Source of the DNA: Alphaproteobacteria bacterium
Lineage (GTDB): Bacteria; Pseudomonadota; Alphaproteobacteria; JBKEAR01
DNA length: 64,000 nt
Assembly: GCA_047972425.1 (NCBI GenBank)
Contig: JBKEAR010000003.1
Location: forward strand, 166,422 to 230,421
Direction of reading: 5' to 3'
Part shown: piece after piece, positions 2,538-64,000 of the stretch
How positions within the stretch are numbered: position 1 is the first letter of the stretch
Layout of the letters: every line of letters starts with the position of its first letter
Notes under the pieces: generated by a model
Told to the model about the DNA's origin: nothing
Database searches by the model: none
Seen by the model: the letters and a program-made list of their open reading frames with translations, nothing else
Position numbers and translations under genes: made by a program

Positions 2538-2603
2538 AACGAATATAGCGCAACATTTACTAAAAATAATCACTATAAAGTACGGTGGTTACATGAGGGC
2601 AAT

Positions 2604-3473
2604 ATGGAAAAAAAATATTTAAGATATAAGGTTGATGGCTCAAAAAAAATAAGCTTAAAAGGTTTTGAGACACGCGATAAAGGGTCTTATGACAATAAAG
2701 AAGAAGGGCTTAAAAAACTTGAGGAAAATAAACTTGAAATCATAGAGTTGCAAAATAAACTATATGCACAAAATGAATATGCTTTGCTTATTATCTTTCA
2801 GGCTTTAGATGCCGCCGGAAAAGATAGCGCCATTAAGCATGTTATGAGTGGTGTTAACCCGCAGGGTTTCCAAGTATATAGTTTTAAAGCACCATCGAAT
2901 GAAGAGCTAGAGCATGGTTATTTATGGCGAACCTCTAAGGCGCTACCAGAGCGTGGGCGCATTGGTATTTTTAATCGTTCATATTACGAAGATGTTTTGG
3001 TGGTAAAGGTTAATAATTTAATTAAAAATCAAAATCTCCCCAAAGATAGACATTATGATGATATATGGCTTAAAAGATATCGGCAGATTAGTGAGCATGA
3101 AAGATATTTATTCGAAAATGCAACGATACCGATAAAGTTTTTTTTAAATGTTTCTAAAGATGAGCAAAAAGAAAGATTTATTGCCAGAATAGATAATCCT
3201 TCAAAAAATTGGAAGTTTGCAAAAGCTGATATTGATACAAGGGCATATTGGAATGATTATCAGGATGCTTATGAGACTGCTATTAATCATACAGCAACAA
3301 AAGATGCCCCTTGGTATGTTATCCCCGCTGATAGAAAATGGTACGCAAGGTTATTAATATCAGAGATTATTTTAGATGAGATGAAGAAACTTAATTTACA
3401 ATATCCGCGGCTGAACCAAAAAGAGATAGAGGCTCTTCAAGGCTATAAAATACAACTATTAGATGAAAAGTAA
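2604..3473 (+). CDS. Polyphosphate kinase 2 (PPK2) family polyphosphate:nucleotide phosphotransferase
   Basis: Walker A-like FQALDAAGKDSAI and NRSYYEDVLVVKV motifs characteristic of PPK2. Confidence 0.8.
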   Translation: MEKKYLRYKVDGSKKISLKGFETRDKGSYDNKEEGLKKLEENKLEIIELQNKLYAQNEYALLIIFQALDAAGKDSAIKHVMSGVNPQGFQVYSFKAPSNEELEHGYLWRTSKALPERGRIGIFNRSYYEDVLVVKVNNLIKNQNLPKDRHYDDIWLKRYRQISEHERYLFENATIPIKFFLNVSKDEQKERFIARIDNPSKNWKFAKADIDTRAYWNDYQDAYETAINHTATKDAPWYVIPADRKWYARLLISEIILDEMKKLNLQYPRLNQKEIEALQGYKIQLLDEK

Positions 3474-3688
3474 ATTAGTTAATAGGCAGGCTTTAAGCCT
3501 TTTGCAGTATTGTAAGGTAAATGAGATATGGGCTATTGCCGTGAACTCACAAATTTGCCATTAAAAAATTTTTATAAAATGAGTTAACAAAAAAATAATA
3601 TTGCTATCAAATTTTTACGATAATTCTGGAATACAAGATAGGTTTTTGTTATACTAGAATTGTAATAATTAGAAAAGGAGACCTATCA

Positions 3689-3856
3689 ATGAGTCAGTTA
3701 GATCGTATTGCAGAGTTAAAAGCCCTTCATCAAGCATTAGATGCACAAATACAAAATGCTTTTGACGAAGGAGCAGACGACGTAACCATGGCTAGACTTA
3801 AAAAAGAGAAACTCCGTATAAAAGACGAAATTGCTGATTTAGAAGCTTCGGTCTAA
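3689..3856 (+). CDS. DUF465 (YdcH-like) small coiled-coil protein
   Basis: 55-aa ORF MSQLDRIAELKALHQALDAQIQNAFDEGADDVTMARLKKEKLRIKDEIADLEASV with AAAAGGAG SD 8 nt upstream. Below the 60-aa cutoff of the ORF track. Confidence 0.6.
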   Translation: MSQLDRIAELKALHQALDAQIQNAFDEGADDVTMARLKKEKLRIKDEIADLEASV

Positions 3857-3861
3857 AAATT

Positions 3862-3893
3862 AAAAGCCTGCATCGCTGATGCAGGCTTTATTC
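3862..3893. terminator. Bidirectional rho-independent terminator between convergent DUF465 and DUF1013 genes
   Basis: AGCCTGCATC-gctg-GATGCAGGCT perfect 10-bp stem with A run before and T run after. Confidence 0.6.
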
Positions 3894-3922
3894 ATATGCG
3901 TGTTTAGAAACCCAATGTTTAA

Positions 3923-4468
3923 TTAGGCTTGGCTTTTGCCGTCATGTTGTCTTTTTTGGGCAACAACCACTGCTTTTTCCAATTCGCTTTCTTTGCATAA
4001 ATCAAGCAAAACCGGGTTTTTAGGAGTAATATTTTCGCTATTCCAATGGGTTTTATCGCGCACAGCATTAATTGTTGGGCGTGTTGTACCAATAAGGCGT
4101 GAAATTTGCGAGTCCGAGAGCTCCGGATAAACTTTAATGAGCCAAGCAATGGCATTGGGTTTATCGGCACGGCGGGCAACAGGTGTATATTTTGTTTTTT
4201 GCTTTGTGATCTTCTCAAAATCTTCGCTATGAGGTGCAGCCTCTAACACATGGCTATGGTCGGCTTCGCCCTTAGTAATTTCTTCTTTGGTTAATTCACC
4301 TTGCAATACAGGGTTTAAACCTTGCATAGAGCTTGCCACTTCGTCATCAGCAATGGCTTTAATTTCTAAGGCATGTAAGCCGGTAAAATCGGCAATCTGT
4401 TTAAAAGATAACCCAGTATTTTCAACAAGCCAAACAGCCGTGGCTTTCGGCATAAGCGGTTTACGCAT
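3923..4468 (-). CDS. DUF1013 domain protein conserved in Alphaproteobacteria
   Basis: 181 aa with N-terminus MRKPLMPKATAVWLVENTGLSFKQIADFTGLH typical of DUF1013. Confidence 0.55.
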   Translation of the reverse strand: MRKPLMPKATAVWLVENTGLSFKQIADFTGLHALEIKAIADDEVASSMQGLNPVLQGELTKEEITKGEADHSHVLEAAPHSEDFEKITKQKTKYTPVARRADKPNAIAWLIKVYPELSDSQISRLIGTTRPTINAVRDKTHWNSENITPKNPVLLDLCKESELEKAVVVAQKRQHDGKSQA

Positions 4469-4526: not shown

Positions 4527-5495
4527 TTATTCAACCTTCGTCAAATATTCCGGCCAAATAGCAACAATTTTTCCTTTATGTTGGTTACTTTCCATATATT
4601 GATGCGCATTTTCAATATCAGATGCCTTAAAATATTTATCAATAATAGGTATAATCTCTCGGGCTTCAATAGCTTGCATTAAATATTTTTGGATTGATTG
4701 AGCAATCTCGGCTTTTTCTTCGGTACTTCGAGAACGTAAGGTTGAACCTGTAATGATAAGGCGTTTGAGCATAATAGGCATAAAGTTAAGCTCAATATTG
4801 GCACCCAGCATATAGTTTATATTAATTAATCGCCCCTTAGGTTTTAGGGTGGCAATATTGCGCTCCATATAACCGCCACCAAGCATATCTAAAATATAAT
4901 CTGCACCACCAAAGGCTTTTTTTGTTATTGCCACAAAATCTTGTGTTTCTCTATTGATAACAAGGTCAGCACCGAGCTGCTGGCAAAAATCTATCTTATT
5001 TCCTGCACATGTTGTAATCACTTTACATTGCCAATATTTTGCAATTTGTATGGCGATGCTCCCAATACCGGAGCTACCAGCATGTATAAGTACTATAGCA
5101 CCTTTGGGTAAATGATTGTCCACATATAAATTGGCCCAAACCGTAAATAATGTTTCGGGTAAGGCAGCGGCCTCGGCAAAAGATAGCGATTGTGGCTTAG
5201 GCAAACAATGGCGGGTATCTACACATACATATTCGGCATAACCACCACCATGGGTGAGTGCCATAACAGCATCACCTTTTTTAAATGAGGATGAGGAGGG
5301 GGCATGTTCAACAATACCGGCAACTTCTAAACCTAAAATCGGGCTAGCATCTTTTGGTGCCGGATATTGACCTTTACGTTGATAAATATCTGGCCGATTA
5401 ATCCCAAATGCACATATACGAATGAGAAACTCATTATCCTTAGGAATAGGTTTTTGCGTTTCTTTTAATTGTAGTTCATGGTCAATATAATACAT
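4527..5495 (-). CDS. qor: NAD(P)H:quinone oxidoreductase, zinc-type alcohol dehydrogenase (MDR) superfamily
   Basis: 322 aa with a GSSGIGSIAIQIAK Rossmann motif. MDR-family architecture. Confidence 0.75.
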   Translation of the reverse strand: MYYIDHELQLKETQKPIPKDNEFLIRICAFGINRPDIYQRKGQYPAPKDASPILGLEVAGIVEHAPSSSSFKKGDAVMALTHGGGYAEYVCVDTRHCLPKPQSLSFAEAAALPETLFTVWANLYVDNHLPKGAIVLIHAGSSGIGSIAIQIAKYWQCKVITTCAGNKIDFCQQLGADLVINRETQDFVAITKKAFGGADYILDMLGGGYMERNIATLKPKGRLININYMLGANIELNFMPIMLKRLIITGSTLRSRSTEEKAEIAQSIQKYLMQAIEAREIIPIIDKYFKASDIENAHQYMESNQHKGKIVAIWPEYLTKVE

Positions 5496-9667: not shown

Positions 9668-10678
9668 TTATTTTGCATTCATCATAGCAATAGCTGTATC
9701 AGCCATACGGTTAGAGAAGCCCCATTCGTTATCATACCAAGCAACAACATGCACTGTTGTGCCTTCCATAACTTTTGTTTGTGTGGCATCAAAAGTAGAA
9801 GATGCTGGGCAATGGTTGAAGTCGATAGAAACAAGTGGTTCTGTGTTATAATCTAAAACTTGACCCATTTTACCGTCTTCAGAAGCTTTTTTAACAATTT
9901 CGTTAACTTCTTCTACAGTTGTTGGGCGTTTTGCTGTAAATGTAAGGTCAACCATTGATACATTGGGTGTTGGTACACGAACAGCAGCACCATCTAATTT
10001 ACCAGCAAGCTCAGGTAATACTAAACCAACAGCGCGGGCAGCACCAGTTGATGTTGGAATCATGCTTAAGGCAGCAGCGCGCGCACGGCGAAGATCAGAA
10101 TGGTAAGTATCTAATGTTGGTTGGTCACCAGTATAAGCGTGAATAGTTGTCATATAACCATGGTCAATACCAATTGTATCGTTAAGTGCTTTTGCAACAG
10201 GCGATAAGCAGTTTGTTGTACAAGAAGCGTTAGAAACAATACGGTGATTAGCTTCTAATTTGTCATCATTCACGCCGTAAACAACAGTTAAATCAGCACC
10301 AGAAGCAGGGGCAGAAACAAGAACTTTTTTCGCACCGGCATCAAGGTGAAGAGAAGCTTTTTCTTTAGATGTAAAAATACCTGTACATTCAAATACAACA
10401 TCAACATCAAGCTCACCCCAAGGAAGGTCTGCAGGGTTACGTTCGGCATATACTTTAATAACATCATCATTTACAACAATATTATTGTCTTCAACACGAA
10501 CATCAGCCGGGAATTTTCCATGAACACTGTCATGGCGTAATAAATGTGCATTTGTTTCGGCATTACCGAGGTCATTGATTGCAACAACCTGAACATCTTC
10601 ACGACCATTTTCAATAATAGCGCGATAAGTCATACGACCAATACGGCCAAAACCATTAATAGCAACACGAACTGCCAT
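9668..10678 (-). CDS. gap: Glyceraldehyde-3-phosphate dehydrogenase
   Basis: [25 protein letters not shown] active-site motif. 336 aa. Confidence 0.95.
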
Positions 10679-13462: not shown

Positions 13463-14209
13463 ATGGCAGGCCATTCCAAGTTTAAAAATATTATGCATCG
13501 TAAGGGTGCGCAAGATGCAAAACGTGCAAAAATTTTTACAAAACATCAGCGGGAAATCACCGTTTCGGTTAAAGAAAGCGGGGCTGACCCCGATATGAAC
13601 CCAAGGCTCAGAAGTGCAATTATTGCGGCTAAAGCCGATAATATGCCTAAAGATAATATTGAACGTGCTATTGCCAAAGCTGCCGGTGGTGGCGATGGTG
13701 AAACCTATAGCGAGATTCGTTACGAGGGTTATGCACCGGGTGGCATTGCTGTTATTGTGGATGTTTTAACCGATAATAAAAACCGCTCCGCTTCAGAGGT
13801 TCGGAGTGCATTTTCTAAAGCGGGTGGTAATTTGGGCGAAACAGGCTCGGTTAATTTTATGTTCGAGCGTGTAGGCGTAATTACATATCCGGCTGAGGCT
13901 GGCGATCATGATGCAATGTTCGAGGCTGGCATAGAAGCGGGTGCCAACGATGTTGTTACCGATGAAGAACATGAATTTTTATCTGACCCTAATGACTTTG
14001 CGGCGGTTCGTGATGCTTTAATTGAGCAACTGGGTGATCCCAAAGCGGCTAATTTAGAATGGCGTGCGGTAACAACAACCGATGTTGATGCTGAGCTTGC
14101 CCCTAAAGTATTACGCTTAATTGATGCATTAGAAGATAATGATGATGTTCAGCATGTTTGGACGAATATGGAAATATCCGATGAAGTCCTTGCTGCGTTA
14201 GATATGTAA
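13463..14209 (+). CDS. yebC: YebC/PmpR family DNA-binding transcriptional regulator
   Basis: [27 protein letters not shown] is the canonical YebC N-terminus. Confidence 0.9.
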
Positions 14210-58520: not shown

Positions 58521-58605
58521 TATCTATAAAGTATACAGACAAAATCTTAGATGCTTATGCAAAAAAGGTTTAAGATTTTTGGTCTATAATGATAAGGAAA
58601 ATTAT

Positions 58606-61008
58606 ATGTCAGAAGAAAATAAAGTTACTTCAGAAAATACTATTCACACAATACCGTTGTTACCATTGCGTGATATTGTGGTTTTCCCCCATATGGCTGT
58701 TCCGCTTTTTGTTGGGCGCGATAAGTCGATTAAAGCGCTAGAAGAAGTTATAGAAAAAGACCGCGAAGTTTTTTTAGTTGCGCAAAAAGACCCAACCACA
58801 GATGACCCTGATATAGATGATGTTTTTCATGTCGGTACAGTTGCACGTATTATGCAGTTACTCCGCTTGCCCGATGGAACGGTTAAAGTTCTTGTAGAGG
58901 GTAAAGCAAGAGGTAAAATCGTTAAGGTTTCTGATGATACAGATTATATGACTGTTGATATTGAATATTTAGCGGATATTGATGATAAAAATGATATTAC
59001 GGATTTAGTTGAAGAATTAAAAAATAAATTTGAGCAATATGTGCGCTTGGGTAAAAAAGTTGCCCCCGAAATTTTATCAAATATTAAGTCAATTACCGAT
59101 TATAGCATATTAGCCGATACAATTGCATCGCACTTAGCTCAAGATGTGAATCACAAGCAACAAATTTTAGAAACAATCAATGTTGAAGATCGTATCAATG
59201 TAACAATCGAAAAAATTGATGAAGATATTGATGTTTTTCAAGTTGAGAAAAAAATTCGCGGGCGCGTAAAACGCTCTATGGAAAAAACACAACGAGAATA
59301 TTATTTAAACGAGCAAATGAAAGCTATTCAACAAGAATTGAATGACGGAGAAGAAGATAATGAAATTGCTGAAATTGAAAAGAAAATAGAAGCAACTGAG
59401 TTATCGACAGAAGCCAAAGAAAAAGCTTATTCTGAATTAAAAAAAATGAAAACAATGAGCCCGATGTCGGCCGAGACAACGGTGGTTCGTAATTATTTAG
59501 ATTGGCTATTGGATATTCCTTGGAAAAAACGTAGTAAAGTAGAAAAAACTTTGCAACAAGCCGAAGAAATTTTAGATCGTGATCATTATGGGCTTAATAA
59601 AGTAAAAGAGCGTATTTTGGAATATTTAGCGGTTCAACAGCGTTCTGAAAAAGTACGTGGACCGATTCTGTGTCTTGTAGGCCCTCCAGGTGTGGGAAAA
59701 ACTTCGCTAGGGCAGTCTATTGCCGAGGCAGCAGGGCGTAAATTTGTACGCATGAGCCTTGGTGGTGTGCGCGATGAAGCCGAAATTCGTGGACATCGCA
59801 GAACGTATATTGGCTCGCAACCGGGTAAAATTGTTCAGAGCATTAAAAAAGTAAAAGTTTCGAATCCGATGTTTTTATTCGATGAGATCGATAAAATGGG
59901 ACAAGATTTTCGTGGCGATCCAGCATCGGCGCTTTTAGAAGTTTTAGATCCGGAACAAAATTCAACATTTATGGACCATTATCTGGAAGTTGAATATGAT
60001 TTGTCGGATGTAATGTTTATCGCAACGGCAAACTCGCTCAACTTACCTGCACCTTTGTTAGATCGTATGGAGATCATCCATCTTTCTGGCTATACCGAAC
60101 AAGAAAAATTAGAAATAGCTAAAAGACATATTGTTAAAAAACAAATGGATATGAATGGTATCAAAGAAGAAGAGTGGTCGATAGATGATAGTGCAATTGT
60201 TGATTTGATTCGCTATTATACTAGAGAAAGTGGTGTTCGTGGATTAGAACGCGATATTGCTAAAATTATCCGTAAGTCATTAAAAGAGATTCTTTTGGGT
60301 AATACAAACCATGTTCATATAACATCAGATAATTTAAGTGGTTATGCTGGGGTTCGTAAATTCCGCTTTGGTATAGCCGAAGAAAAAGATCAAGTAGGCG
60401 TAACTACCGGTTTAGCTTGGACATCTGTTGGTGGTGAGCTTCTCTCTATCGAAGCTGTAGAGCTTAAAGGTAAAGGGAATATGAAGCTTACAGGTAAGTT
60501 GGGCGAAGTAATGCAAGAATCTATCCAAACGGCTCGGTCTTATGTTCATTCGCGAGCAAATCAATATGGTATTCCTTTTAGTAAGTTTGAAGAAAAAGAT
60601 ATTCATTTGCATGTGCCTGAGGGTGCAACACCGAAAGATGGACCTTCGGCAGGGGTTGCTATGGTTACAAGCATCGTTTCTGTTTTAACCAATAATCCGG
60701 TACGTAAAGATATAGCCATGACTGGAGAAGTTACTTTAAGAGGGAATGTCTTACCCATCGGTGGATTAAAAGAAAAACTTTTGGCTGCATTAAGAGGGGG
60801 GATTAAAACGGTATTTATACCTAAAGAGAATGAGAAAGACATGGCCGAAATTCCTGATAACGTAAAAGAAGGATTAGAAATTATATTTGCTGATCATGTC
60901 GATACTGTTTTGGAAGGTGCTTTAGTTAATGAGCTTATTCCCATTAACGAGCTTGATGTCGCATCAAATAAAGATATTGATACAAATAACCCGACAGCAC
61001 ATCATTAG
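58606..61008 (+). CDS. lon: ATP-dependent protease Lon
   Basis: Walker A GPPGVGKTS. Catalytic PKDGPSAGVAM Ser. AAGGA SD precedes the ATG at 58606. The ORF is open from 58579. Confidence 0.95.
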   Translation: MSEENKVTSENTIHTIPLLPLRDIVVFPHMAVPLFVGRDKSIKALEEVIEKDREVFLVAQKDPTTDDPDIDDVFHVGTVARIMQLLRLPDGTVKVLVEGKARGKIVKVSDDTDYMTVDIEYLADIDDKNDITDLVEELKNKFEQYVRLGKKVAPEILSNIKSITDYSILADTIASHLAQDVNHKQQILETINVEDRINVTIEKIDEDIDVFQVEKKIRGRVKRSMEKTQREYYLNEQMKAIQQELNDGEEDNEIAEIEKKIEATELSTEAKEKAYSELKKMKTMSPMSAETTVVRNYLDWLLDIPWKKRSKVEKTLQQAEEILDRDHYGLNKVKERILEYLAVQQRSEKVRGPILCLVGPPGVGKTSLGQSIAEAAGRKFVRMSLGGVRDEAEIRGHRRTYIGSQPGKIVQSIKKVKVSNPMFLFDEIDKMGQDFRGDPASALLEVLDPEQNSTFMDHYLEVEYDLSDVMFIATANSLNLPAPLLDRMEIIHLSGYTEQEKLEIAKRHIVKKQMDMNGIKEEEWSIDDSAIVDLIRYYTRESGVRGLERDIAKIIRKSLKEILLGNTNHVHITSDNLSGYAGVRKFRFGIAEEKDQVGVTTGLAWTSVGGELLSIEAVELKGKGNMKLTGKLGEVMQESIQTARSYVHSRANQYGIPFSKFEEKDIHLHVPEGATPKDGPSAGVAMVTSIVSVLTNNPVRKDIAMTGEVTLRGNVLPIGGLKEKLLAALRGGIKTVFIPKENEKDMAEIPDNVKEGLEIIFADHVDTVLEGALVNELIPINELDVASNKDIDTNNPTAHH

Positions 61009-61297
61009 TCGAGTGTTTCGAATCGTATACTTGCAAAAGTTAACTTCTATAAATTCACCATCAATTTTATCCAAAAAGCCATATTTTTGACAAATTTGGT
61101 GGTAAATCCCTTAAGAAACAATAGTTTTTTGCAAAATTCACCATTTCTTACTTGACCCAAGGGAATAATTGGTTCAATTAATAATGGTCTAGAGTTTTAA
61201 GCATTGTGCTTAAAATTAATTTTAACAGTATAGCCTGAGAGATTGCTAAAAAATAAATAAATGGCAATCTGAATGAGAGATATAGGGGACTATAAAA

Positions 61298-61585
61298 ATG
61301 AATAAAAATGAACTCGTAGCCGAAGTAGCAAAAGCTTCTGGCTTATCAAAAGCTGATGCCGGTCGTGCAGTAGAAGCTGTAATTGATTCTGTTTCTGGCG
61401 CTTTAGCCAAAGGTGATGAAGTGCGTTTAGTAGGATTTGGTACATTTAGTACTCAAAAACGTGCAGCAACAACTGGTCGTAACCCACGTACACAAGAACC
61501 AATGAAAATTCCTGCTTCTGTACAACCACGTTTTAAAGCTGGTAAAGTTCTAAAAGAATCAGTGCAAGTTCTTCTTAAAAAATAG
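61298..61585 (+). CDS. hupB: DNA-binding protein HU
   Basis: MNKNELVAEVAKASGLSKADAGRAVEAV...GFGTF...RNPRTQEP HU/IHF fold signature. Confidence 0.9.
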   Translation: MNKNELVAEVAKASGLSKADAGRAVEAVIDSVSGALAKGDEVRLVGFGTFSTQKRAATTGRNPRTQEPMKIPASVQPRFKAGKVLKESVQVLLKK

Positions 61586-61612
61586 CTTTTTTTACTAAGA
61601 CAGAATTTTTTT

Positions 61613-61654
61613 AATACCCTCATCTTTTTTGTTTGACAAGATGAGGGTATTTTA
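61613..61654 (+). terminator. Rho-independent terminator after hupB
   Basis: AATACCCTCATCT-N13-AGATGAGGGTATT 13-bp stem followed by TTTT. Confidence 0.6.
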
Positions 61655-61683
61655 CTATAAAACCTTCACATATCTTTGATTAA

Positions 61684-61759
61684 GGGTGGTTAGCTCAGCT
61701 GGGAGAGCGACTGGTTTACACCCAGTAGGTCAGCGGTTCGATCCCGTTACCACCCACCA
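61684..61759 (+). tRNA. tRNA-Val (anticodon TAC)
   Basis: GGGTGGTTAGCTCAGCTGGGAGAGC D-arm. Anticodon loop TTTACAC. GGTTCGATCC T-loop. ACCACCCACCA end. Confidence 0.85.
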
Positions 61760-61854
61760 GATTTTTTAAAAATCTAAAATTTGGTTTTTCTAAATAAAAA
61801 GCTTTGACAAGTCTTTTTTATTTTTGTAAAACCACCAAGCTAATAAAACAACAA

Positions 61855-61931
<77 letters not shown>

Positions 61932-61953
61932 CTTGTTGTTATTATAAATATTA

Positions 61954-62030
<77 letters not shown>

Positions 62031-62311
62031 TTTATTTCCAAATATATTTCATGAAAACCCTCCATATTTTACGCAGATATTTATATACCAATAAAGCAAT
62101 TACTTTACATGCTGATATGTTGAAAATTGAATTTGCACTATTATCTCAATTGCCTGAGTGAGTATCGGCTGCGAATTGATTAATTAATGATACACAAAAA
62201 AATAAATCGAATATTCACTAACGCTCTATCAATAGCTGAATATACCTGCCTTGTGTTAAGTATATAGTCGGCAACTGAATCTATCCGTTTCTTAAATTTC
62301 ACAAACCTTAT

Positions 62312-62352
62312 TGACAAGCGTTTTATTCAATGATAATAATTAATTATTATCA
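62312..62352 (+). promoter_or_regulatory. Candidate sigma-70 promoter (TTGACA at 62312-62317) with overlapping perfect 22-bp palindromic operator TGATAATAATTAATTATTATCA (62331-62352)
   Basis: TTGACA, 17-nt spacer, then TAATAA -10-like hexamer inside the palindrome. The palindrome is a 7-8-7 arrangement of Fur-box-like half-sites TGATAAT/ATTATCA. Located 32 nt upstream of the yheO-like start. Confidence 0.35.
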
Positions 62353-62383
62353 ATAATAAAAATTTATTATTAATGGGTGTGTT

Positions 62384-63004
62384 ATGAAAGTTACTGTAGA
62401 TTTAGAAATTTTAGCCAATTTTTTATCTAAGGCCTTAGGTCAATCAATGGAAGTAGCTGTTCATGACTTAAATGATATTAACAACAGCTTACTTATCCTC
62501 AAAAATGGTCATGTTACAGGGCGCAAAGAGGGGATGGGCATTACCGATTTAGCATTAGAGATGATTAAAGATCAATCAAGTAATCCAGATACTCCATATA
62601 AGGTTAATTATGAAAGTCGTACCTTAGATGGCAGATTACTCCGGTCATCTACATTGATCCTTCAAGATGACGATGATAAACCAAAAGCCATTTTATGTCT
62701 TAACCATGATGATTCTGAATTTCATAGCCTTATAGAGCATCTGCAGCAAATAACAAAAATTGAAGACCATTATAGTCGTGAGAATTTTTCTACTGGTGTT
62801 TCTCATTTAGGAGAAAAAATCATTGCCGATGTTATGGCAAGTAATCATAAACCTGTGAGTAAATTAAATGTGCAGGAGAAAAAGCAGCTTGCAGCAATGA
62901 TGGTTAAAGCGGGAGCCTTTGAAATTAAAGGTTCTGTTGAAATTGCAGCTAAAATGCTAAATGTTTCCGAACCAACTCTTTATCGATACCTTAAGCAGGC
63001 ATAG
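62384..63004 (+). CDS. YheO/DauR-family transcriptional regulator (PAS-like sensor N-domain plus C-terminal HTH)
   Basis: NGHVTGRKEGMGITDLALEMIKDQ matches the E. coli YheO core (NGEHTGRKIGSPITDLALRML). C-terminal HTH GSVEIAAKMLNVSEPTLYRYLK. Confidence 0.65.
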   Translation: MKVTVDLEILANFLSKALGQSMEVAVHDLNDINNSLLILKNGHVTGRKEGMGITDLALEMIKDQSSNPDTPYKVNYESRTLDGRLLRSSTLILQDDDDKPKAILCLNHDDSEFHSLIEHLQQITKIEDHYSRENFSTGVSHLGEKIIADVMASNHKPVSKLNVQEKKQLAAMMVKAGAFEIKGSVEIAAKMLNVSEPTLYRYLKQA

Positions 63005-63026
63005 CTAAAGGATAGGGAGGTAAGAA

Positions 63027-63086
63027 ATGGAAAAAGAAAATTTTTTGAAATGGATTATCTGTCTTATTAAATGCCCCGATTCCTAA
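63027..63086 (+). CDS. Candidate 19-codon leader peptide MEKENFLKWIICLIKCPDS upstream of the tryptophanase-family gene
   Basis: Strong SD GGGAGG 6 nt upstream of the ATG. Contains a single Trp codon, and Pro two codons from the stop. Followed by an AT-rich inverted repeat (TCAATATTAT...ATAATATTGA) ending next to the lyase SD. Speculative. Confidence 0.3.
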   Translation: MEKENFLKWIICLIKCPDS

Positions 63087-63139
63087 ATATATTCAATATT
63101 ATATCATCTATATAAATTAATAATAATATTGAAATATAA

Positions 63140-64000
63140 GGAAAAAACAATGAAACGTATTCCGGAACCTTTCCGTATAAAAATGGTTGAACCCATTCGG
63201 ATGACCAATTATAACGACCGTAAAAAAGCCATTGTAGAGGCTGGCTATAACCCATTTTCATTAAAAAGCAAAGATGTATATATTGATCTCTTAACTGATT
63301 CTGGCACAGGAGCCATGAGTGATAATCAGTGGGCTGGGTTGATGCTTGGTGATGAAGCTTATGCAGGAAGCCGAAACTTTTATAATCTCTACAATGCAGT
63401 ACAACATTTTTTTGGTTATGAATTTGTTATTCCGACCCATCAGGGGCGTGGTGCCGAACAAATTCTATTCCCTTGTTTGATCGAGAAAATGAAGCGGGAA
63501 AGAGGCGGTGATAAACCTGTATTTATTTCTAATTACCATTTCGATACAACCGCTGCACATATAGAACTTAATGGAGCTAAAGCGCTCAATATCGTAACTG
63601 AAAAAGCTTTTGATACAAAAACCTACTATGATTGGAAAGGGAATTTCGATTTAGAAAAGCTTGAAACGACTATTGCAGAGCATGGCAGCAAAAATATTGC
63701 AGCAATTGTCACAACAGTTACATGTAACAGCTCAGGCGGCCAGCCCATCTCTATGGCAAATATGCGTTCTGTACACGAGATTGCTAAAAAGCATAATATT
63801 CCCGTTGTTATTGATTCTGCGCGTTATTGCGAAAATGCCTATTTCATCAAACAACGTGAAAAAGGTTATGAAAATAAATCGATTTTAGAAATTATTAGAG
63901 AAATGTATTGTTATGGCGATATGCTGACAATGTCGGCTAAAAAAGACCCTATGGTTAATATCGGCGGATTATGCTGTATAAAAGGTGATAAAGAACTTTT
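63140..64000 (+). CDS. Tryptophanase / tyrosine phenol-lyase family beta-eliminating lyase (PLP-dependent), 3' end beyond window
   Basis: [15 protein letters not shown]...[30 protein letters not shown]...[10 protein letters not shown]...NFDLEKLE...[23 protein letters not shown]...[13 protein letters not shown]. Strong collinear similarity to E. coli TnaA and Citrobacter TPL, including the PLP-lysine region SAKKD. In frame from the ATG at 63140 to the window end. Confidence 0.8.

Follow-up and report, generated by a model that had tools for sequence, protein, structure and literature searches.

At the 3' end of the 64,000-nt stretch of alphaproteobacterial DNA that was analysed (hereafter, the window), a gene for a YheO/DauR-type regulator, a short leader ORF and a tryptophanase gene follow one another on the plus strand. 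On balance, we favor the combined reading that this region represents the 5' half of an indole-forming operon, conserved within its lineage, for the uptake and degradation of tryptophan in an uncultured, low-GC alphaproteobacterium, and that the operon is controlled at two levels. As judged from the sequence, it is likely that repression by the regulator is released by a ligand and that the ribosome-binding site of tnaA is unmasked in a leader-dependent manner; folding predictions for five of eight homologues lend weak support to the latter step.

The left border of the region is a tRNA cluster, which starts with tRNA-Val (TAC; 61684-61759, plus strand; Rfam tRNA score 65.7 bits) and continues with two identical tRNA-Asp genes (GTC) in tandem (61855-61931 and 61954-62030, plus strand), all detected with ARAGORN and Rfam. 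This cluster is also found upstream of the regulator gene in L084 (related contigs and loci are designated here by L numbers); in L013, the cassette lies ~1 kb from tRNA-Val/Asp, and in the related contigs L004-L006, the contig breaks fall within the tandem tRNA-Asp repeat. The tRNAs, the PAS-HTH regulator, the 19-codon ORF and the lyase listed in the initial annotation of this DNA are all present at or near the positions it had given them, except that the lyase gene does not start at 63140, which is part of the Shine-Dalgarno (SD) sequence, but at an ATG at 63150. A search of positions 61000-64000 against Rfam at a permissive threshold yielded no known riboswitch or leader, but only the tRNAs and sub-threshold matches to HPnc0260, YrlA, CRISPR-DR57 and snoU61; the latter were dismissed as noise, with those to HPnc0260 and YrlA overlapping the tRNAs.

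The complete unit is present on a near-identical contig, where the order is regulator, leader, tnaA, a gene for an Mtr-type tryptophan permease, ridA, a probable terminator and then nuoA. This gene order was read from L004 together with L007, L013, L016 and L084. An exact look-up of the sequence of the window regulator gave no match, and L004 was reached by look-up of a variant with one residue changed (G137D). The two genes beyond the window were assigned in L004 with scores above the respective cutoffs, i.e., the permease at 2539-3813 (NF007789, 587 bits, cutoff 515; TIGR00837, 489 bits, cutoff 350) and RidA at 3845-4222 (TIGR00004, 166.6 bits, cutoff 106.25). The probable terminator after ridA in L004 consists of a GC-rich hairpin and a T-run, as judged by eye. 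The nuoA gene lies downstream of the cassette in all five relatives in which that flank is visible.

The first 283 codons of tnaA are located in the window (63150-64000, plus strand), and the gene runs off its end; in L004, the protein comprises 466 residues and is 99.6% identical to the window fragment. The lyase had initially been assigned to the family comprising tryptophanase and tyrosine phenol-lyase (TPL), and its match to Beta_elim_lyase (E 1e-66) bears this out. The window fragment scores 489 bits with the tryptophanase profile TIGR02617 vs. 339 with that of TPL. Full-length TnaA of L004 reaches 814 bits with TIGR02617, narrowly under the equivalog cutoff of 825.8, and 748 bits with PRK13238 (cutoff 285), whereas its score with the TPL model TIGR02618, 568 bits, is below the cutoff of 720.7. 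By these profile scores, the lyase is a tryptophanase and not a tyrosine phenol-lyase.

The regulator (62384-63004, plus strand) is a protein of 206 residues with an N-terminal PAS_6 sensor domain (E 1.2e-31) and a C-terminal HTH_22 domain (E 5.6e-18). This combination of a YheO-like PAS domain (PF08348) and a DauR-like HTH domain (PF13309) agrees with its earlier designation as YheO/DauR-type. The regulators of eight distinct relatives that bear the leader are 61-87% identical. A metagenome scan with a regulator profile revealed no further alphaproteobacterial members of the clade, but did uncover YheO loci that are more distant and another three Clostridia-type loci with adjacent tnaA and yheO genes. 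Such adjacency recurs independently in five Clostridia-type loci. A ridA gene is adjacent in ~22 of 47 genome loci containing a YheO homologue. A sequence search of the PDB with the regulator gave no solved relative, and a fold search returned only generic matches to PAS, GAF and IclR ligand domains, with no hint of a ligand.

A sigma-70-type promoter candidate precedes the regulator gene (62311-62340, plus strand); it consists of TTGACA, an 18-nt spacer and AATAAT (11 of 12 matches), and a TTGACA box is present at a similar distance upstream of the regulator gene in seven out of seven relatives examined. On the plus strand between the regulator gene and tnaA, no promoter-like site was seen. 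The -10 box is overlapped by a predicted operator, i.e., two tandem 18-bp palindromes, ATAATAA-N4-TTATTAT, at 62333-62350 and 62353-62370. These are the only perfect matches to the motif in the window, and four copies with at most one mismatch were found there vs. 0.23 expected. The motif is AT-rich, as is the genome, and its spacing and sequence differ among relatives. No palindrome with at most one mismatch, and hence no second operator, was found in the spacer between the leader and tnaA. In five of the six diverged alphaproteobacterial relatives that were scanned (L087, L013, L015, L084 and L086), a palindrome with at most one mismatch is found just upstream of the regulator gene. The exception is L007, where the related palindromes GATAATAATTTATCA and TGATAATAAATTATTAT occupy the operator position and none is found at this stringency. 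Related palindromes are also located before tnaA in three of the Clostridia tnaA-yheO operons (L061, L062 and L078). Thus, in the sequences compared, this subfamily of regulators is accompanied by operator-like palindromes, and the position of the latter suggests that the regulator is a repressor rather than an activator. In the near-identical assemblies L004 and L006, a 41-bp deletion takes out both palindromes, leaving the operators and the -10 box absent altogether; this deletion, if real, would mean that transcription can start elsewhere or that the operon is dispensable.

The leader ORF (63027-63086, plus strand) consists of 19 codons and a TAA stop codon, encodes the peptide MEKENFLKWIICLIKCPDS, and is preceded, 6 nt upstream, by the SD sequence GGGAGG (63015-63020, plus strand). 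It is a genuine feature, as initially supposed, and is found at the position expected of a tna leader: an ORF of 15-19 codons recurs at the same position in eight distinct relatives, and G-rich SD-like sequences are found upstream of it in all eight variants. Conservation is focused on the C-terminal 8-11 residues, which conform to the motif [IV][IFY]x[LV][IV]K[CS]P[DE]x-stop with an invariant Pro three codons ahead of the stop codon, and the N-terminus is variable. The leaders of the window and of L087 differ by four synonymous and no non-synonymous changes, and the last 11 codons of those of L016 and L015 by six and none, respectively. At codon positions 1, 2 and 3, the differences between leaders number 106, 71 and 171, respectively, with an excess at the third position. 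Nucleotide identity is 0.63 in the leader vs. 0.38 in the spacer. In a six-frame translation of 1.03 Mb, 15 instances of the sequence K[CS]P[DE]x-stop fall at the leader position and only one lies elsewhere. Together, these patterns of substitution show that purifying selection acts on the peptide encoded by the leader ORF. The description of the ORF as Trp-containing holds for the window clade, to which the Trp codon is confined, but not in general, as a Trp is present in only two of the eight variants. We also considered attenuation by codon starvation, acting via leader codons for Trp or Cys, and rejected it, since the Trp codons are not conserved and since a catabolic operon should not be induced by starvation.

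The 3' end of the leader may also act at the RNA level. In the window, a stem is predicted (63080-63143, plus strand) in which UUCCU (63080-63084), corresponding to the Asp-Ser-stop codons of the leader, pairs with the SD sequence AAGGAA of tnaA (63138-63143). This predicted stem encloses a perfect 11-bp hairpin (63092-63102/63123-63133). The calculated probability that the SD sequence of tnaA is unpaired amounts to 0.08 in the free RNA vs. 0.46 when the 3' end of the leader is masked. In five of eight homologues, this probability is 0.01-0.11, 85-99% of the pairing of the SD sequence is with the 3' end of the leader, and masking by a ribosome footprint is predicted to lift accessibility to 0.26-0.67. 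In the other three (L015, L013 and L086), the stem is weak or absent, and z-scores for folding of the whole region are weak (-1.65 to +0.38). Codons for Pro, Asp and Ser resemble anti-SD sequences by nature, so the pairing might have arisen as a side effect of the amino-acid sequence of the leader.

We propose the following model for the regulation of the operon. The regulator would bind the two palindromes on the -10 box and keep the operon that includes its own gene repressed as long as the PAS_6 domain is not occupied by a small ligand. By analogy with DauR-type control of operons for amino-acid deamination, tryptophan or one of its breakdown products is the obvious candidate ligand. On the resulting transcript, the leader peptide may act in cis on the ribosome that translates it: if this ribosome paused around the conserved K-C-P-D/E-x-stop end, it would continue to cover the 3' end of the leader ORF and, thereby, free the SD sequence of tnaA from the stem. 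Such a mechanism would amount to translational attenuation as in erm and cat genes, replacing the antitermination by TnaC and Rho that operates on the closest TnaA homologues. RidA would clear the reactive aminoacrylate/imine that the PLP enzyme sets free.

The leader ORF might instead have no sensing role, either encoding a small protein that has a function of its own or serving, between the regulator gene and tnaA, as a device for translational coupling and stabilization of the mRNA, with all regulation exerted via the YheO-type factor. That such a factor alone can suffice is suggested by the Clostridia tnaA-yheO operons, which have the same type of operator and no leader ORF, and the SD-masking structure is indeed not universal. 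However, a coupling device does not need the strong purifying selection seen on the C-terminal residues of the leader next to its variable N-terminus, 15-19 residues are few for a stand-alone protein, and the ORF was found only before tnaA. Conservation of the C-terminus together with a variable N-terminus is the pattern typically seen in peptides acting from within the ribosomal tunnel. We therefore consider the explanation without sensing unlikely, though it is the alternative to be taken most seriously.

Alternatively, the ORF could be a shortened and diverged TnaC, which, as its counterparts in Escherichia coli and Proteus do, still responds to free L-Trp within the exit tunnel and governs Rho-dependent termination in the spacer. 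As in the tnaCAB operons of E. coli and Proteus vulgaris, the genes for tryptophanase and tryptophan permease follow each other here, and a short leader ORF with a conserved Pro near its C-terminus lies directly upstream of tnaA. This Pro is preceded by hydrophobic residues (at -4 and -3) and followed by one to few codons, reminiscent of the endings DFPRA*, DFPV* and DFPNACV* of classical TnaC peptides. Moreover, TnaA homologues with 65-83% identity in Polycladidibacter, Photobacterium, Microbulbifer and Tistrella are encoded downstream of leaders with a W-x3-D-x7-P pattern, in loci that lack a yheO gene, and, by this comparison, the ancestor of tnaA in the window clade most likely had TnaC. 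However, the residues that define TnaC, i.e., W12, D16 and I19 (PMC10941005), are absent from the leader variants. In TnaC, W12 and D16 are invariant and form the sensor domain, and I19 precedes by five residues the Pro24 at or near the C-terminus. A Trp, where present in the two variants, is found at -8 rather than -12 from the Pro, no Asp is found four positions after it, and position -5 from the Pro is occupied by one of C, R, S and L instead of Ile. The leaders are also shorter than those of tnaCAB operons (15-19 vs. 24-36 residues). Their stop codons include TAA, TAG and TGA, so that there is no specificity for RF2. The spacer between the leader and tnaA is only 61-112 nt long with 6-13% C, compared with 131-334 nt and 15-41% C in the classical loci of the four genera; thus, there is little room for a rut site, whereas tnaCAB operons contain a long untranslated region with a rut site and boxA. 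In addition, the operon opens here with the gene for a dedicated transcription factor and includes ridA. Hence, a descent of the leader from TnaC with retention of its mode of action appears improbable, and the residues and spacers compared indicate that this peptide is of a kind other than TnaC. A bolder extension of our model is that the leader motif defines a novel family of ribosome-arrest peptides that sense a metabolite; these would have evolved independently of TnaC, would gate the synthesis of tryptophanase at translation and not via Rho, and would act in series with a repressor of the YheO type that senses tryptophan or indole through its PAS_6 domain. We put this forward as a tentative possibility, which may well turn out to be incorrect.

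The regulator, mini-ORF and lyase had further been proposed to constitute an accessory island, which was acquired horizontally at tRNA-Asp and inserted into a conserved, Rhizobiales- or Bartonellaceae-like core. The cassette indeed begins 354 nt after tRNA-Asp, and its left flank differs among relatives. Furthermore, TnaA is 77-83% identical to annotated tryptophanases of Vibrionaceae and Dickeya, far above the 65-68% identity of the Lon protease of the host to that of the best-matching named taxa (Kordiimonas, Sneathiella and Rhodospirillales), which suggests that tnaA was once transferred. However, between tRNA-Asp and nuoA, only four protein-coding genes and the leader ORF were found and no integrase or mobility gene, and a repeat of the 3' end of tRNA-Asp (12-25 nt with 0-2 mismatches) was absent from the 6 kb downstream in L004. 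The GC content of the cassette (0.35-0.37) is indistinguishable from that of the neighboring core (0.33-0.41). Rather than being accessory, the cassette was encountered in each of the relatives recovered, with Lon identities from ~96% down to ~76%, and nuoA comes next in every case in which this flank is visible; a pair retained at this junction in close relatives is what the initial annotation itself had named as an argument for core status. Within the clade, the divergence of TnaA (85-92%) tracks that of the host. An island acquired as a recent event is thus largely refuted, and we give the proposal as a whole very little credence; judging from the identities of the enzyme, tnaA probably does have a history of horizontal transfer, which, if so, is old relative to the clade. 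A Rhizobiales-like host is not borne out by the Lon comparison either.

Finally, that the regulator is a mere neighbor of tnaA and controls itself or distant genes is the least credible of the alternatives, even though related palindromes precede a 43%-identical regulator beside symporter and oxidoreductase genes in L082, so that the motif might mark the regulator and not tnaA, and no pathway has been assigned to YheO of E. coli (10.1101/2024.11.20.624476), because no promoter-like site separates the two genes, the gaps are short, their adjacency is kept in all members of the clade, and the pairing arose independently in Clostridia with the opposite gene order and the operator directly before tnaA.

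The favored organization, with the regulator controlling tryptophanase, shares features with several other systems. DauR of Pseudomonas aeruginosa (PA3864), which regulates the dauBAR operon for D-arginine dehydrogenase, has the same two Pfam domains (PMC7789669), and its gene also lies in or beside an operon for an amino-acid deaminating enzyme. The likeness is by domain architecture; the cargo is tryptophanase here instead of D-arginine dehydrogenase, and the regulator gene is the first of the operon and not the last. With erm and cat attenuation, the operon shares a short leader ORF with its own SD sequence and, as predicted in five of eight homologues, pairing of the leader's 3' end with the SD sequence of the next gene, which is freed when a ribosome covers the leader. 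In contrast, there is no antibiotic context here, and the structure is not found in all homologues; the motif of the leader peptide is not known to match the leaders of erm or cat genes. The Clostridia operons (L061, L062 and L078-L080), of which no description was found, similarly pair tryptophanase with a YheO-family regulator and have tandem TGATA...TATCA/ATAATAA...TTATTAT palindromes overlapping the -10 box. However, tnaA comes first there, the unit has no leader ORF, permease gene or ridA, and the regulator is only ~26% identical. In literature searches of incomplete coverage, which included YheO with RidA, PAS/HTH regulators upstream of tnaA and the Pfam accessions, no paper linking YheO-type regulators to tryptophanase was found, which is in line with the initial suggestion that the regulator-lyase architecture is undescribed; nor did we find a description of double control of a tryptophanase operon by a YheO/DauR-type regulator and a non-TnaC leader.

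The control of tryptophanase is the textbook example of a nascent peptide serving as a sensor of a small molecule, and all characterized examples that we know of use TnaC. Here, a TnaA whose close relatives are under TnaC control appears to have lost TnaC and gained another conserved leader together with a PAS-HTH regulator. With its 15-19 residues, this leader is a compact candidate arrest peptide that is easy to synthesize and, if the arrest-peptide reading is true, it would represent a second, unrelated solution to the sensing of tryptophan on the ribosome. The uncultured alphaproteobacterial lineage itself is, by its gene content, a likely producer of indole. For the largely uncharacterized YheO/DauR family, the operon provides a target promoter, a predicted operator and candidate ligands. 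The association of YheO homologues with RidA and deaminating enzymes suggests a general role of the family in amino-acid deamination pathways, which would aid the annotation of thousands of genes now listed as "helix-turn-helix domain-containing." If the proposed control is true, it would be the first assignment of a YheO-family regulator to a pathway beyond D-arginine catabolism.

Downstream of lon and hupB (61298-61585), both ARAGORN and Rfam locate a tRNA-Val gene (61684-61759) followed by tRNA-Asp in two identical copies (61855-61931 and 61954-62030). Sub-threshold Rfam matches to YrlA (35.9 bits; gathering threshold 69) and HPnc0260 (41.7 bits; gathering threshold 59) at 61882-62149 overlap the tandem tRNA-Asp genes and look like tRNA-derived false positives. 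The 354 nt that separate the tRNA genes from the next ORF contain no credible gene. This ORF (62384-63004) encodes a regulator of 206 aa with a YheO-like PAS domain (PAS_6; E 1.2e-31) and a DauR-like HTH domain (HTH_22; E 5.6e-18). Its stop codon is followed after 22 nt by a leader ORF of 19 codons (MEKENFLKWIICLIKCPDS; 63027-63086) with a GGGAGG Shine-Dalgarno (SD) sequence 6 nt ahead, and, 63 nt beyond the leader ORF, by a gene for a beta-eliminating lyase, which starts with an ATG at 63150, is preceded by an AAGGAA SD sequence and extends past the end of the window. The regulator, mini-ORF and lyase reported in the initial annotation are thus present at the positions indicated there, except that 63140, given as the lyase start, is the ribosome-binding site.

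A database look-up revealed no record of the exact regulator protein, but did reveal a one-residue variant on L004, a 31-kb contig whose regulator, leader region and TnaA (99.6% identical at the amino-acid level) are near-identical to those of the window. There, regulator and leader precede, in this order, the genes for a 466-aa lyase, for a 425-aa Trp_Tyr_perm transporter and for a 126-aa Ribonuc_L-PSP protein, and nuoA-nuoG follow directly. Against NCBIfam profiles, the lyase scored 814 bits for the tryptophanase equivalog TIGR02617 (cutoff 825.8), 748 bits for tryptophanase PRK13238 (cutoff 285) and 568 bits for tyrosine phenol-lyase TIGR02618 (cutoff 720.7). Since it shares 77-83% identity with annotated tryptophanases of Photobacterium, Vibrio, Dickeya, Pseudovibrio and Polycladidibacter, the gene is, as judged by sequence, tnaA and not tpl, which settles a choice that the initial annotation had left to such a comparison. 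The transporter matches tryptophan permease (NF007789; 587 bits, cutoff 515) and the last cassette gene, ridA, the Rid-family deaminases (TIGR00004; 167 bits, cutoff 106). A promoter scan found one strong sigma-70-like site (TTGACA - 18 nt - AATAAT; 62311-62340; 11/12) and no promoter-like site on the + strand from the regulator to tnaA. Together with the gene order and a GC-rich hairpin followed by a T-run 3' of ridA in L004 (judged by eye), this single site suggests that the five ORFs form one operon.

Most relatives contain a second Trp/Tyr-family permease gene, 59-67% identical, between ridA and nuoA (L007 14263-15534; L013 7609-8877; L084 4600-5886; L016 3798-5072), which is missing from the window clade (L004). 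In the relative L015, the first permease gene is fragmented and probably a pseudogene. The tna operons of Polycladidibacter (L088 8777-9631) and Microbulbifer (L090 7130-7984) contain pdxY, encoding pyridoxal kinase, between permease and ridA, which couples cofactor salvage to the PLP enzyme; the window clade has no pdxY.

The cassette was initially proposed to be an accessory island in a Rhizobiales/Bartonellaceae-like host. The Lon protein of the window is 100% identical to a protein from an NCBI alphaproteobacterial MAG, and its nearest named relatives, with 65-68% identity, are from Kordiimonas, Sneathiella and Rhodospirillales, so the host label is unsupported. The mechanically called lon ORF (58579-61008) has a TTG start and 809 codons, whereas the identical database protein counts 800 aa from an ATG at 58606. 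At 0.35-0.37, the GC content of the cassette matches that of the neighboring core, which counts against a recent island; no integrase is encoded within the cassette, and the tRNA-Asp 3' end does not recur within 6 kb downstream. Moreover, the same cassette is present in all relatives recovered, with regulators 61-87% and TnaA 85-92% identical, and it is followed by nuoA and nuoB in all five loci with a visible right flank. By the standard set in the initial annotation, the cassette is thus lineage-conserved rather than a strain-level accessory island. On its left, the tRNA-Val/Asp/Asp cluster adjoins the cassette in L084 as well, tRNA-Val/Asp genes lie 1 kb upstream of it in L013, and the left flanks differ in L007, L015 and L086. 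In L007, a tRNA-Met gene (9716-9792, -) lies upstream of the regulator gene and a tRNA-Val gene (14025-14100, +) between ridA and the second permease gene, showing that the surroundings of the cassette were rearranged and that tRNA genes were involved. That TnaA is so highly identical to gammaproteobacterial enzymes suggests that tnaA itself was acquired horizontally long ago.

A perfect palindrome of 22 bp, TGATAATAATTAATTATTATCA, overlaps the -10 box and is followed by a second one. The motif ATAATAA-N4-TTATTAT has exactly two perfect matches in the window (62333-62350 and 62353-62370) and, when at most one mismatch is allowed, four matches against 0.23 expected from shuffles. With the same tolerance, it is found just upstream of the regulator gene and downstream of a TTGACA box in L087, L013, L015, L084 and L086; L007 has no such match upstream of the regulator gene and carries the palindromes GATAATAATTTATCA and TGATAATAAATTATTAT at the same position. 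In three Clostridia-type loci (L061, L062 and L078), related palindromes embedding a TATAAT box lie directly upstream of tnaA, and a 26%-identical YheO homolog is encoded downstream of tnaA. A perfect match also precedes a 43%-identical regulator gene with a symporter and an oxidoreductase gene as neighbors (L082). Recurring across these loci, the motif travels with the regulator subfamily, as expected of an autoregulatory operator, and its location on the -10 box suggests repression. A 41-bp deletion relative to window positions 62332-62372, flanked by a short TTTATT direct repeat, removes both palindromes and the -10 box in L004 (290-330) and L006 (290-330), two assemblies that are near-identical and stem from independent SRA runs (SRR30067235 and SRR30067232); the region is intact in L005 (SRR30067233) and the window. 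The deletion may be either a regulatory polymorphism that occurs naturally or an artifact of assembly in which the AT-rich palindromes collapsed.

The pairing of YheO and TnaA arose at least twice, with opposite gene orders. Among YheO homolog loci (L017-L059 and L065-L076), a RidA-family gene lies within a few kb of the regulator gene in ~22 of 47 genome loci and 8 of 19 metagenome loci, spanning Chromobacteriaceae, Clostridia, Spirochaetes and Desulfovibrio. Two regulator paralogs are found near RidA genes in L020, L043 and L045, and flank them in the latter two, while Chromobacterium homologs adjoin a gene for a serine-dehydratase alpha-subunit. The frequency of RidA genes suggests that regulators of this family are generally linked to imine-generating amino-acid catabolism. 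DauR (PA3864; PF08348+PF13309), the one member documented here with an assigned pathway, regulates a D-arginine dehydrogenase operon (PMC7789669), and E. coli YheO has been validated as DNA-binding but has no assigned function (10.1101/2024.11.20.624476).

Eight distinct leader versions occupy the same position, each behind a G-rich SD-like sequence. The peptide of the window is shared by L087; the others are MSKENLFERIFCLVKCPDS (L016), MNKGTLLQRIFCLVKCPDS (L015), MQRQDIYRLIKCPED (L007), MQKKYIYSLVKCPED (L084), MQKKYIYSVVKSPEN (L013) and MEKIYVYLLVKCPEG (L086). All four nucleotide changes between the window and L087 leaders are synonymous, with regulators only 87% identical, and the last 11 residues are identical between L016 and L015 despite six synonymous codon changes. 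When all pairs are compared, codon positions 1, 2 and 3 differ 106, 71 and 171 times, and mean nucleotide identity is 63% in the last 33 coding nt vs. 38% in the first 33 nt of the spacer. A six-frame translation of 1.03 Mb contains 15 instances of K[CS]P[DE]x-stop at the leader position and one elsewhere. On these sequence patterns, i.e., synonymous-only close pairs, third-position excess and restriction of the motif, the leader ORF is translated, and selection acts on its peptide. The last 8-11 residues, which would occupy the ribosomal exit tunnel, account for most of the conservation, and the peptide is rather probably a cis-acting regulatory leader.

The mini-ORF of the initial annotation is real and conserved, but only two variants contain the Trp noted there. 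The residues that define TnaC are W12, D16, I19 and P24 (PMC10941005). In contrast, the Trp in those two variants is at -8 rather than -12 from Pro, Asp at W+4 and Ile at -5 are absent, and all three stop codons are used. By its missing W12/D16/I19 pattern and mixed stop codons, the leader does not qualify as TnaC. Upstream of the closest TnaA homologs outside the clade, all four loci have textbook W-x3-D-x7-P leaders, ending in KWYNRDVMLAYDFPRA (Polycladidibacter), AWFNQDFRLSNDFPV (Photobacterium), AWFTQDVRLAYDFPNACV (Microbulbifer) and AWYNQDIVLAYDFPRA (Tistrella), with spacers of 131-334 nt and no YheO gene. Hence, the regulator and a different leader appear to have taken the place of a TnaC-type control region in this clade. 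The Vibrio campbellii leader (L091, about 4807-4905; MRIKDILDSRLVLSFWYNLDYCLSLLSKISAR) keeps W-x3-D and, unlike the classical TnaC of those four genera, lacks Pro at the expected position.

As to how the leader may act, the tnaA SD sequence is predicted to pair with the last leader codons, i.e., AAGGA with UUCCU of Asp-Ser-stop in the window, L087 and L016, and AGGACA with UGUCCU of Cys-Pro in L007 and L084. Within this stem lies an inner hairpin, which has 11 perfect pairs in the window (63092-63102/63123-63133). In folding of these five sequences, the SD sequence is unpaired with a probability of 0.01-0.11, with 85-99% of its pairing to the leader end, and its accessibility rises to 0.26-0.67 when a ribosome footprint is masked at the leader stop. 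A ribosome held at the leader end would thus free the tnaA SD sequence. Such erm/cat-style translational attenuation is the best available mechanism, and a tentative one, since the masking effect is absent in L015, L013 and L086 and overall folding z-scores are weak. The clade spacers are unlikely to be a Rho substrate, since they are short (61-112 nt) and C-poor (6-13% C).

The suggestion that the combination of regulator and lyase constitutes an undescribed regulatory architecture still stands and gains strength from the predicted operator, the independent recurrence in Clostridia and the conserved non-TnaC leader. The system is a variant of the known tna operon, and its leader peptide may represent a new family of arrest peptides.
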